Of a stretch of DNA of 64,000 nt, positions 18,437-24,609 are shown piece by piece. This stretch comes from Promethearchaeia archaeon. GTDB taxonomy: Archaea; Asgardarchaeota; Lokiarchaeia; Sigyniarchaeales; SOKP01. The position numbers and the translations under genes were made by a program. The notes under the pieces are model-generated. The model searched no databases. It worked only from the letters and a program-made list of their open reading frames with translations, and was not told the DNA's origin. The number at the start of each line of letters is the position of its first letter. Position 1 is the first letter of the stretch. The DNA is taken from the NCBI GenBank assembly GCA_029856125.1, contig JAHQWJ010000147.1:1-64000 (forward strand), in the 5' to 3' direction.

Positions 18437-20809
18437 ATGGTTGACTGCAAATTTTGTGAATCCCAAAACATTTCTTTTACTTGTGAGAAATGCAAGTCAA
18501 GTTTTTGCATTAACCATATGGCTACAACAGAGAGCTGGCTTTGTAGAAAGCATGAGTTACATTATTCTAAGGCGAGTGCTACTGAGAAATTTTATAAATG
18601 TACTGTTATTGAAAATAGTAAATGTCCGGAGTGCGATTCTCTCTTAAGATTAGAAAGATTATCATCGGGTCATTATTATTTAGAGTGCATTGACGATACA
18701 TGCAGTTGGAACTCCTACTTAAAATCTCCCGGCTTATTTTTTCCTACTAAAGAACAGTTAGCTAGGGAAGCTACGAAATATAATTTAATTAAAGGATATA
18801 GGTTAAACTTATGTCGTCGATCTCTCAAAAAGATAGTTGGGAAAGATATTTGTCCAAATTGTTTCATAGAGTTTCTCAAGAGAGCCTCAATTACTAACTT
18901 CTCCACTATTATCGAATCATTCAATCTTACTGCTCAACAAATGGTTAAATTAATTAACCAATACATTGAAGAGGAACGAATTTATGGTATAATTGACCAG
19001 AAGAACCAGATTTTTTACTACATATCCTACGAAATCCGTGAGAAAATTTTATCGAAAATTCAAAACGAAGGTATATTGAAAGTAGCAGATCTGGGAGAAA
19101 TGCTCGATATGAGTTCAGAAGCGGCTATAAAAGTCATTTATAAGTTAATTAGCCAGTTTCAAATCAAAGGCTCGTTTTCTCAAACAAAACAATTCTATTA
19201 CTCCCAAAAATATATAATAGACCATTTAATAGAAGAGATTAATAAAAAGGGAAGGGTTTCGTTAGATAAACTTGCGAAAATATTTGATGTCCCAGGAGAA
19301 TTGACAAAATCTTTTTGCGTCAATCTAATGAGAACAAACGCAATTAATGGATTTTTTGCCGATCGTGGTAATGAAATTATTACTTCTGACCAAATTTATA
19401 AAGAAATTAAAGCTTTTTCAAAAGAAGTAGGTTTATTTGAGCTTTCTAAGCTTGCTACAAAATTAAAAATAGCTATAGAATTAGCAAGAAAAAGTCTTCA
19501 TGAACTCATTAAATCTGGCAAAATTAAAGGGCTTTTCACCCAACGCAGAGAATTCATGACACGTAAATACCTCGAGACGAAAATAAAAGAAATCGCTCGA
19601 GCCTACAGAACGATGCCATTAAGAGAACTTTCGAACAGATTGGGTGTAACTGAATCCAGCATAGAAGAGAATCTTGCTCAACTGATTGGAAGTGGAGATA
19701 TCGATGGTTTTATTGATTTAGGAAAGAGAATGTTTACAGCATACTCGGTACCGCGCACTTCATCAGGAACTTCGCGGCCAAAACAGAAAAAAGCAATTCC
19801 TGTTGACGAGGGAAACATTGAAGTTGTAAGGGATTATGATTTCGAGGGTGGACAAGTACACATGAAAATCGCTGTACGGAATAAAAGCGATATGGCTATC
19901 AATAATGTTAAAGTCCTATTAGATGCGCCAACTAACTTCAAAGTAAAACAACCTTTGATAAGTGTTCCCGTAATTGAAGCTAAGAGTAGTAGGGGAGTAG
20001 ATTTTTATCTTGAGCCCAAAAATTGCGGCACATCAAACATTGGCGGAACTGTTATCTTTAAAGATGCAACGGGTGAAAAACACACTAAACACATAAGAAA
20101 AAAAGAAGTTGCTATAAAATGTCCACTTGTTTGTACCTCAATGAGCACTATAGAGGATTGTCAAGTTGCAATACAAACCTTAGGAAACGATGCTCGGGCA
20201 TTTTTAATTGCTGACTTAGACCCTCGTTTAGCTTATAGGGCTGCGATAAGAACGCTAAAAAACTTTGATACTAGCGCTGTAACATCACACGAGGGTTCTG
20301 ATCCAAAGGGAAATTACGAAGCTGAAGCATGGTTCTGTTCTGAAGCAAAAGTTACTGGCGGGAGAATTATTACACGAATCTATGTATCTGAAACAAGTCA
20401 ATCATTGGAAGTAAGAGTATGGTGTGGAAATCCAGGACAATTAACTGGTTTCTTAGCTAAAATTATAGAAATATTGTTTGAGCAGATAAACATAATCAGA
20501 AAAATCAAATCAGAGGAAAGAGAGAAAACAATAGATGTCATGGCAATTACACAGAACTTAGCTGAAATCAGCGATTATTGTATGCTTAGATGGAAGGCAC
20601 AGAATATAAGAAACAAATTGCATGACACATTTGTACGTTTAAGGAAAATTTTAGGAGATAATGAGGCTATCTTAGGTAGAGTCGAATATTGGCTAACTCA
20701 ATTGAATAAATATGGCAAAGACGATAAAATCAGCGATGAGGATGCCGAAAAACTAGTGAATGATGTAGAAAAAATCAAAAGTGTCATTTCCCGAGCCATA
20801 AAAATGTGA
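18437..20809 (+). CDS. Multidomain protein: Zn fingers + tandem winged-helix/PCI-like repeats + GAE-platform appendage + helical tail
   Basis: CxxC..CxxC..C..H and CPEC..C....C at the N-terminus; about 5 repeats ending in G-x-[IF]-[DST] wings; C-terminal beta-sandwich and alpha/beta platform pattern. Confidence 0.75.
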   Translation: MVDCKFCESQNISFTCEKCKSSFCINHMATTESWLCRKHELHYSKASATEKFYKCTVIENSKCPECDSLLRLERLSSGHYYLECIDDTCSWNSYLKSPGLFFPTKEQLAREATKYNLIKGYRLNLCRRSLKKIVGKDICPNCFIEFLKRASITNFSTIIESFNLTAQQMVKLINQYIEEERIYGIIDQKNQIFYYISYEIREKILSKIQNEGILKVADLGEMLDMSSEAAIKVIYKLISQFQIKGSFSQTKQFYYSQKYIIDHLIEEINKKGRVSLDKLAKIFDVPGELTKSFCVNLMRTNAINGFFADRGNEIITSDQIYKEIKAFSKEVGLFELSKLATKLKIAIELARKSLHELIKSGKIKGLFTQRREFMTRKYLETKIKEIARAYRTMPLRELSNRLGVTESSIEENLAQLIGSGDIDGFIDLGKRMFTAYSVPRTSSGTSRPKQKKAIPVDEGNIEVVRDYDFEGGQVHMKIAVRNKSDMAINNVKVLLDAPTNFKVKQPLISVPVIEAKSSRGVDFYLEPKNCGTSNIGGTVIFKDATGEKHTKHIRKKEVAIKCPLVCTSMSTIEDCQVAIQTLGNDARAFLIADLDPRLAYRAAIRTLKNFDTSAVTSHEGSDPKGNYEAEAWFCSEAKVTGGRIITRIYVSETSQSLEVRVWCGNPGQLTGFLAKIIEILFEQINIIRKIKSEEREKTIDVMAITQNLAEISDYCMLRWKAQNIRNKLHDTFVRLRKILGDNEAILGRVEYWLTQLNKYGKDDKISDEDAEKLVNDVEKIKSVISRAIKM

Positions 20810-22576: not shown

Positions 22577-22942
22577 ATGATGGGAAAAGGAAAGTATGGG
22601 AAAGGATATGATAAGAAAAATCAAGCTTCAAAAGGCTCTGGTTCTAAAGGTGGAGGCGCACCAATTCGTGGAGGTAAGATCAAAGCCAGTCACATTTTAG
22701 TTGATAAATTTAGTAAAGCTCAAGAGCTTTCTGAAGACATTCAAGCCGGAGAGAACTTTGAAAATTTAGCGAGGCAATTTTCTACGTGTTCGAGCAAGAA
22801 AAAAGGCGGAAATTTAGGAGAATTTGCCAAAGGGGATATGGTAGCTGAATTTTGGTCCGCTTGTGCAAAATTGAAGATCAACGAAATATCTCAACCCGTT
22901 AAATCTAAATTTGGATATCATATTATTAAAAGAACGGGGTAA
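22577..22942 (+). CDS. Parvulin-type peptidyl-prolyl isomerase with Gly/Lys-rich N-terminal extension
   Basis: KASHILV, FENLARQFS, GGNLG, PVKSKFGYHII. Confidence 0.93.
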   Translation: MMGKGKYGKGYDKKNQASKGSGSKGGGAPIRGGKIKASHILVDKFSKAQELSEDIQAGENFENLARQFSTCSSKKKGGNLGEFAKGDMVAEFWSACAKLKINEISQPVKSKFGYHIIKRTG

Positions 22943-22951
22943 AAGATTAAA

Positions 22952-23024
22952 TAGCCCAGCACGGATTCGAACCGTGGTTGCAGGGTTCAGGGCCCCGAGT
23001 GCTTGACCGCTACACCACTGGGCT
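22952..23024 (-). tRNA. tRNA-Gln(CUG)
   Basis: AGCCCAG/CTGGGCT acceptor stem (A1-U72), anticodon arm CGGGG-CCCTGAA-CCCTG, T arm CACGG-TTCGAAT-CCGTG; C at position 33. Confidence 0.93.
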
Positions 23025-23196
23025 TTAAAAAGATTATTAATTAATAGAATATAGTTAGTATTATCTAAAAAATCTTTTTCTTTTGAATTAAGGCTAATCC
23101 AAAAAGTCTACTAAAGGTTAATAATCTAATTTGTTAAAAAAAAAATATCTTTGAATTGAGATAGATTTTTATTAGAGTATTACCTTATGAATTATT

Positions 23197-23366
23197 GGAT
23201 TACACTAGGTTTACAAGGAGGATTTAAAAAAAAAAAACTTGTTTTTTTTTAATGCTCTTATGAGTATTAAAAACCCGTGAAATTACGCGTTTTCTGCGTA
23301 TTTTGGGAAACTGAAAAAACAAAACCCCGTAAACTAAAAGTAATTCTTTATCCTCCGGTGTAATCC
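23197..23366 (+). ncRNA. Candidate structured non-coding RNA of unknown family
   Basis: Closing helices GGATTACACT/GGTGTAATCC and GGAGGAT/ATCCTCC, two internal hairpins, a potential pseudoknot GGTTTAC/GTAAACT, G-U pairs favouring the + strand, and a T-tract immediately 3'. Confidence 0.55.
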
Positions 23367-23400
23367 TCTTTTTTTTAGAAAGATAATTAGAGAGATTTCT

Positions 23401-24609
23401 CTAATCAGTGTTATAAAGGGAAAAAATCTCTTGAAAATACTTATCCGACATACCCGCGATAAAATCTCGGGCTATTAATTTAAGGTTTCCATTTTGCTTA
23501 TTTGGTTCAAAATAAGTAGTATATTTTTCATCATCAATATATTCTATGTGGTCGATAAAAATAGGAGCTTTAAAATTTTCTTCCTCTAAATCTCGGAGAG
23601 AATTTTCAAAAATTAGGTTAAATTTCTTTGTTAGATTTTCCATGTAGGAAATTTTGGAATCATCGGTTTTATGCATATCTCTTCGACTATATATATTATC
23701 ATAATTAAATCTTTTTAATTCTTTAAACGCTTCAAAAATGTCTTCACTATATCCGATAAAATCGTTATGTAAACTTGTGTTCAATAAATCCATGATAAGT
23801 GCTTTCATGATTTTCCGATTAGTATCGCCAAGTACATTTTTACAACTATTTGGTATATCTGATCTTTTAATTATTTTTAATAGAATTGCGTCTTCAATAT
23901 CTCGGCCAATATAGGCTACAGAATCCGCAAATCTTACTGCGATGCCTTCGAAAGACATAGGTATTCTTTTAATTTGATTAGCGTTGAAACTTTCTTTATA
24001 TTCTTTAAAGTGATCTTCCCAACTCTTTCCGTTTATTGTAGCTGGCTTCAACTCTCTCTCGTTAACTTCGCCATCGTGACATAGAACGCCATCTAGCACT
24101 TGAAGGGTCAGATTTAATCCTTTTGCAGGTTTGTCAGGAAATCTTTTTTCAAGAAAAGATAACCACCTTATCCCTTGAGCATTATGATTAAAAACACCCA
24201 TATGATTTTTCAAACTTATATCATTTAATATAGCTTCACCTAAGTGCCCAAAAGGAGAATGTCCTACATCATGACTTAAAGCAATCGCTTCTATTAGATC
24301 AGTATTAAATTTCAAAATTCGTCCTATTTGACGCGCAATTCTGGCTACTAAAATAACATGTAAAGAACGATGAGTAATATTTGCGTTATTAATGCCAAAA
24401 AATACTTGAGTTTTATCTATATAGCGAGCGTAAGCTTTACTGTGAACAATTCGATCAACATCTCGAAAGAAGGCAGGCCTGATATCAATAGCGGATTCTT
24501 CATCTTCTTCGTAATATCTTACTGCTTGTGAATCAGATATAGCTAAACTTCCGATATCTGAATCCCGCCTCATATGGAGAGTATAAATTTTAAGATTTTT
24601 AGGATCCAC
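23401..24609 (-). CDS. HD-domain dNTP triphosphohydrolase (dGTPase-like)
   Basis: FRD.DRI.HS, KTQV, THRSLH, EAIALSHDVGHSPFGHLGE, RFADSVAY..DIED, DFIAGMSD. Confidence 0.9.
   Translation of the reverse strand: MDPKNLKIYTLHMRRDSDIGSLAISDSQAVRYYEEDEESAIDIRPAFFRDVDRIVHSKAYARYIDKTQVFFGINNANITHRSLHVILVARIARQIGRILKFNTDLIEAIALSHDVGHSPFGHLGEAILNDISLKNHMGVFNHNAQGIRWLSFLEKRFPDKPAKGLNLTLQVLDGVLCHDGEVNERELKPATINGKSWEDHFKEYKESFNANQIKRIPMSFEGIAVRFADSVAYIGRDIEDAILLKIIKRSDIPNSCKNVLGDTNRKIMKALIMDLLNTSLHNDFIGYSEDIFEAFKELKRFNYDNIYSRRDMHKTDDSKISYMENLTKKFNLIFENSLRDLEEENFKAPIFIDHIEYIDDEKYTTYFEPNKQNGNLKLIARDFIAGMSDKYFQEIFSLYNTD

Follow-up and report, generated by a model that had tools for sequence, protein, structure and literature searches.

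What is the multi-stem segment that lies between a tRNA-Gln(CUG) gene (divergent) and a dGTPase-like HD-domain gene (convergent) in this Lokiarchaeia genome of 3.69 Mb and 33% GC? A sequence-only reading of the window, that is, of the whole 64,000-nucleotide stretch analysed, had proposed a standalone novel ncRNA on the + strand. Our comparison with relatives bears this out through a family-wide single copy, covariation, G-U polarity, the position of the TATA element and the lack of an Rfam match, and we consider it very probable that the gene is real; as far as sequence can tell, it is an undescribed, family-wide ncRNA gene that fits none of the families against which it was compared. Every segment listed in that reading was recovered where it had been placed, including a heptamer at 23208-214, its complement at 23329-335, and an inner hairpin within CCC/GGG. 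The features of the RNA gene and its immediate neighbours are as follows.

22952..23024, - strand: tRNA-Gln(CUG), the divergent neighbour in most genera
23160..23174, + strand: BRE-like GATAGA and T-rich TATA element, the latter at about -30 to -23 relative to G23197
23197..23366, + strand: precursor ncRNA of 170 nt (140 nt if spliced as predicted)
23197..23206, + strand: 5' strand of P1, pairing with 23357-23366
23207..23216, + strand: 5' bulge separating P1 from P2, with neither length nor sequence constant; in one genus it forms a hairpin
23217..23223, + strand: 5' strand of P2, polypurine, pairing with 23350-23356
23226..23273, + strand: A-run (A12, 23226-237), CUUG/U-run and a genus-specific 12-bp AU hairpin (23246-23273)
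23350..23366, + strand: 3' strands of P2 (23350-56) and P1 (23357-66)
23367..23376, + strand: U-rich terminator-like tract (T tract at 23369-376 seen directly, after P1)
23401..24609, - strand: dGTPase-like HD hydrolase, the usual neighbour, though several relatives lack it here or have it inverted

The RNA is a property of one lineage. Homologues were recovered genus-wide by BLAST, a motif search extended the set to further genera, and CM searches placed the RNA in 92 of 126 genomes of one Lokiarchaeia family (SOKP01-like), across 10 of its 13 genera, with one credible copy in each; lengths run from ~100 to 220 nt, with a median of ~140. The 3.69-Mb genome yielded no further copy. Neither the CM nor a second model gave a hit at a credible E-value in 24 genomes from six other Lokiarchaeia families, a search in which diverged forms could be missed, and a search for stems beside tRNA-Gln in other families returned nothing comparable. 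The RNA was likewise not found in genera g24 and g25 or in genus g18 (0/5), where the syntenic gap lacks it and, in one genome (G187), the dGTPase gene is inverted with respect to the window. Other Asgard classes were searched by exact pattern only, and no homologue was present among 54 viral pattern matches or among the bacterial pattern matches in GTDB genomes. Some records titled Hodarchaeota or Hermodarchaeota do carry the ncRNA; because the neighbouring proteins are 63-82% identical to those of the window genome, and several of these records coincide with genomes of the family, the titles look mis-assigned. One genome (G193) also has a weak second CM match (2038-2182 of its excerpt), with three CCCCGUG copies and an ACUGA word and without P1 or P2; it lies downstream of three similar small ORFs and is a possible paralogue or remnant.

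Both closing helices covary. P1 is 100% paired in the unfitted alignment (A2), with 2 compensatory pairs, and in the wider alignment fitted to the model (A3) 99.5% of its cells are paired, with double-sided changes in 7 of 9 pairs; for P2, that alignment shows double-sided changes in 6 of 6 modelled pairs. The combined figure from this model-fitted alignment, 13 of 15 pairs, lies beyond all slid registers and was matched by 0 of 500 shuffles. Most of the P1 sequence is replaced in two genera. The wobble cells of P1 comprise 7 G-U and 0 A-C, in agreement with the earlier claim that G-U pairs work only on the + strand, and it is therefore the + strand that represents the RNA. Two further proposals did not survive comparison. 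First, a pseudoknot between the two heptamers, possible over 7 bp, is confined to the window genome among the 77 copies; the remaining 76 give 3-6 bp, save for one 8-bp A/U match, and the element is thus not conserved. Its 3' strand looks like a decayed strand of P3, a third covarying helix that is present in most other genera (5' strand found in 42 of the 77 copies) and lost in the genus of the window. Second, P2 had been described as an SD/anti-SD-like pair; covariation turns its 5' strand into GAAGGA, GAGAAU or GAAGAU in relatives, which speaks against such a role.

The geometry of archaeal promoters is well established and was used to read the upstream region. Across 84 homologues, the position profile has T at 94-95% at -30/-29, with a purine-rich element upstream of it (G at 71% at -37), and the T-rich element at -30 therefore places the start near G23197. 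A T-rich run follows within 20 nt downstream in 51 of 82 homologues. Folding of the + strand gives -45.9 kcal/mol (z = -4.2, equalled by 0 of 200 shuffles), and that of the - strand z = -3.4. From these features we infer a stable, standalone ncRNA that would have an archaeal promoter to itself and run from about G23197 to the U tract. Since the flanking genes vary among relatives, with the dGTPase gene inverted or absent and different genes upstream, the RNA is not a UTR element of the dGTPase gene.

In size, in its paired 5' and 3' ends, and in having an internal loop, the RNA is like Y RNA, 6S RNA, the C/D and H/ACA guides, RNase P RNA, and SRP RNA. Rfam 15 nonetheless returned no match at the gathering threshold, its best matches by E-value lying far under their cut-offs, and the earlier impression that the RNA is unlike tRNA, SRP, RNase P, C/D, and H/ACA RNAs held for each class. 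A tRNA, including a split or multi-intron one, is not apparent: removal of the insert leaves neither a T-loop nor a D-arm, and both ARAGORN and Rfam were negative. The CUGA word resembles a D box, but there is no conserved C box, and the spacing before CUGA ranges over 0-18 nt; for an H/ACA guide, neither a 3' ACA box nor an apical kink-turn is conserved (A2 and A3). The genome's own RNase P RNA (124.7 bits) and SRP RNA (59.9 bits, below the cut-off) lie on other contigs. That SRP RNA, at 190148-190383 of its contig, has no match to model positions 1-66. A Y RNA is disfavored because Ro60 (PF05731) was not found in 5 genomes and the P1 sequence covaries freely, and no 6S match was returned by Rfam.

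What is conserved in sequence are two C-rich, single-stranded motifs, M1 and M2, set on A-rich linkers. This core was missed by the sequence-only reading, as was the probable nature of the inner hairpin within CCC/GGG, which we read as a BHB-type intron that interrupts M1. The relevant segments are listed here.

23272..23279, + strand: first half of M1, AACCCGUG (four C in most relatives), in which CCCG (23274-77) provides the 5' side of the central BHB helix and UG (23278-79) the first two nucleotides of bulge 1
23280..23309, + strand: candidate BHB (HBh') intron of 30 nt, consisting of A, a stem-loop (23281-23303), UGGG (23304-07, the 3' strand of the central helix) and AA
23310..23314, + strand: second half of M1, ACUGA, with ACUG invariant in alignments A1 and A2 and A23310 as the third nucleotide of bulge 2
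23321..23330, + strand: M2 (A-run and CCCCGU), a duplicate of M1, predicted to be single-stranded

M1 is present in 76 of 77 copies, and 75 of the 77 have two C-runs. Folding predicts that M1 is paired with the intron in the precursor and that both motifs would be open once it is spliced, with unpaired probabilities of 0.82-0.96 for M2. P1 and P2 would thus clamp both ends of the RNA and keep an A-rich loop open in which M1 and M2 are displayed. One genus has the motif and P3 in swapped order, the spacing within M1 takes values of 0-18 nt, and the linkers lack structure; together with the duplication of the motif, these properties suit protein-binding sites. The mature RNA would then offer two unpaired C-rich sites to an RNA-binding protein, acting as its scaffold or decoy. 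That splicing unmasks such a scaffold is the reading we prefer, tentatively and with confidence not far short of even. CsrB and RsmZ, which are protein-sponge sRNAs with repeated GGA, offer a parallel, as they too are standalone sRNAs in which a short unpaired motif recurs on a scaffold that varies. Unlike them, the archaeal RNA has only two motifs, which are C-rich rather than GGA, its ends are clamped by P1 and P2, and its partner is putative.

A different function for the spliced RNA, which we regard as unlikely yet deserving of weight, is that of a snoRNA-like base-pairing chaperone, in which M1 and M2 would pair transiently during 30S assembly with a G-rich site, for which the h15/h4 junction of 16S rRNA is the best candidate. 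The complementary site lies at nt 391-398 of the window genome's 16S rRNA; nowhere else in the 16S does either motif form a better duplex (-18.1 and -14.6 kcal/mol), and 1 of 40 shuffles did equally well. The site occurs throughout the family and is different in the other sampled families, in which the ncRNA was not found; however, it is also retained in genus g18, where no ncRNA was found either. Variants of the M1 C-run are C-to-U changes or an added U, so wobble pairing to G is kept, but C-to-U is the commonest mutation in AT-rich genomes anyway. Further, the complement spans only 8 bp, one site needs no two copies of a motif, the RNA has no working C/D or H/ACA boxes, and the sole apparent compensatory case (G190) is accounted for by an internal helix. 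An apparently different 16S site in two genomes (G243 and G255) proved to be a match in the 16S leader. In another genome (G007), the 16S and 23S genes are unlinked, ~50 kb apart; one half of a 7-nt complementary pair lies in the 16S leader and the other upstream of 23S, the latter next to a C-box-like word.

About a third of the copies, the window genome among them, carry an insert of 29-32 nt that divides M1. In all 25 inserts, that of the window genome included, the order of elements is CCCG, UG^N, stem-loop, NGGG, A(A/U)^N. This amounts to a helix of 4 bp whose strands are each followed on the 3' side by a bulge of 3 nt, with the insert boundaries behind the second nucleotide of each bulge, the point at which EndA cuts BHB motifs. 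These boundaries were defined from insert-less alleles, independently of the motif, and cutting at the canonical bulge positions yields the insert-less allele of sister genomes. In 6 alleles they are unambiguous, and in the others a shift of 1-3 nt is possible; one sub-lineage has a short allele with an additional UG, its insert still ends in AA^, and the sister genomes match accordingly. All 4 pairs of the central helix form in 21 of the 25 alleles and 3 of them in the other 4, and an intron-side stem-loop occurs in 25/25, with at least 2 contiguous pairs beside the bulge in 20. In the window genome, where the helix is CCCG/UGGG, the fourth pair is its one G-U (pair probability 0.45), bulge 1 can slip, and the exon-side helix is absent. 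The BHB motif is described in PMC6379350, and the canonical HBh' rule, as used in a 2026 preprint on Asgard tRNA introns (10.64898/2026.10.13.758758), holds for 16 of the 25 inserts versus 0.1% of shuffled ones. On a quick dGTPase tree (62 rows), the presence of the insert requires 12 changes, against a shuffled mean of 17, and several sister pairs differ in it; gain and loss are indistinguishable from this tree, and because kin are not independent, the 25 alleles represent perhaps 10-12 events. Considering these features, the insert is probably spliced as a BHB intron.

Should the insert instead be no more than an optional hairpin that always stays in the RNA, the ncRNA would still be real and would have some other function, for example as a 6S-like RNA polymerase decoy. 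Some relatives do have non-BHB spacers of 3-18 nt at the same site, and one has a 59-nt non-BHB insert, so the site tolerates unspliced insertions; relaxed BHB shapes are also frequent by chance. Against this stand the exact boundaries, the fixed 3-4-3 geometry and the constant length despite divergent insert sequences, a canonical class that takes in 16 of the 25 inserts where shuffling gives 0.1%, and a presence/absence pattern that is precise and repeated, and we therefore judge a never-spliced hairpin quite unlikely.

The lineage appears equipped to remove such an intron. In seven relatives, the neighbouring tRNA-Gln gene is interrupted at 45/46 by an intron of 30-31 nt whose BHB geometry is that of the ncRNA insert, which means that the lineage must splice such motifs. 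The genome contains a gene for RtcB and two for ~200-aa EndA paralogues, an alpha and a beta subunit. The alpha subunit has Tyr/His/Lys and a Lys44-type specificity loop and is closest to the EndA of Aeropyrum pernix. Such a loop has been tied to broad-specificity EndA (PMC6379350), and on these residues the enzyme is predicted to be of the broad-specificity (alpha-beta)2 type. The crenarchaeal specificity loop retained in lokiarchaeial EndA alpha (1456-2055, - strand, of its excerpt) fits the family's many non-canonical tRNA introns. In the splicing model that we favor, the 3' end of the 30-nt intron would pair with the CCCG of M1, (alpha-beta)2 EndA would cut within both 3-nt bulges, and RtcB would ligate the exons into the insert-less sequence, thereby freeing M1.

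The tRNA-Gln introns also raise the prospect that the RNA is a mimic or decoy derived from tRNA-Gln, with M1 copying positions 37-47 and attracting EndA, GluRS/GatDE, or an anticodon nuclease. M1 shares an 11-nt identity with positions 37-47 of the window genome's tRNA-Gln(UUG) (shuffle p 0.002, from a null that is lenient because rRNA also gives a 10-nt same-sense match at p 0.02), the intron sits in the register of the tRNA-Gln 45/46 introns, and the gene adjoins tRNA-Gln(CUG). Yet the RNA has no cloverleaf, D arm, or T arm, and M1 shows no covariation with tRNA-Gln 39-47, a stretch that varies widely among family members. Lacking covariation, the match more likely explains where the intron landed than what the RNA does, and a tRNA-Gln mimic is distinctly improbable. 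By eye, the ncRNA and tRNA-Gln introns have no clear identity beyond their ends, so recent copying between them is unsupported. Least probable of all is a DNA element with terminal inverted repeats (a MITE, a protein-binding array, or an origin-like site). In its favor, both strands fold and the C-rich word is directly repeated, but there is a single copy per genome at a fixed, largely syntenic locus, the G-U wobbles are strand-biased, the promoter and U tract are oriented, and the intron signature is at the RNA level.

If the insert is spliced as we propose, it is probably an intron of a known kind in a new host. Like other archaeal BHB (HBh') introns, it has 3-4-3 geometry, would be cut after nucleotide 2 of the bulges, is ~30 nt long, and is patchily gained or lost; it differs in that the known hosts are tRNA, rRNA, and mRNA, whereas here the host is a small ncRNA and splicing is predicted from sequence. 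In Thermoproteus SRP RNA, a BHB reportedly joins permuted ends, whereas in the present RNA an internal, polymorphic insert would be removed. The parallel is that the Thermoproteus RNA, circularised via a BHB motif (PMC4731332), is a stable ncRNA beyond tRNA and rRNA on which EndA acts, as it is proposed to do here. Described BHB substrates comprise tRNA, rRNA, cbf5 mRNA, and the 5' UTR of Haloferax HVO_1309 (PMC7714728), and the literature searched contained no small ncRNA as a BHB intron host besides tRNA, rRNA, and the two mRNAs. An intron in an ncRNA would, if true, widen the substrate range of the tRNA-splicing machinery. How BHB introns arrive is a question left open by the Asgard tRNA-intron preprint (10.64898/2026.10.13.758758), and the insert provides a test case for it, since its site matches 11 nt of tRNA-Gln and the neighbouring gene has introns in the same register. 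More broadly, Asgard non-coding RNAs beyond the universal set are little described, and an RNA that occurs family-wide, in single copy and with its own promoter suggests that relatives of the eukaryotes contain an RNP that has escaped recognition. It is possible, though we place this clearly below even, that the RNA belongs to a so far undescribed class of stable RNAs in archaea, in which a motif masked by a tRNA-type intron is freed by EndA and RtcB, conceivably to act as a snoRNA-like chaperone of ribosome assembly.

The surroundings of the gene have features of their own. The tRNA-Gln(CUG) gene has C33 in place of U33; since C33 also occurs in the tRNA-Gln(CUG) and tRNA-Gln(UUG) genes of many relatives, intermixed with U33 versions, it is a trait of the lineage and no error. 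Beyond it lies a parvulin gene (22577-22942, + strand) whose product has a basic N-terminal tail rich in Gly and Lys, which we take to resemble that of eukaryotic Par14. Homologues of this parvulin occur in 133 of 161 Lokiarchaeia and were not found in genus g29; as a candidate partner for the ncRNA it was set aside, as the two show no co-distribution. Finally, the gene at 18437-20809 (+ strand) encodes a 790-aa protein with Pfam matches to PCI, UFL1, DDRGK, and VPS28 and is retained in the neighbourhood family-wide.
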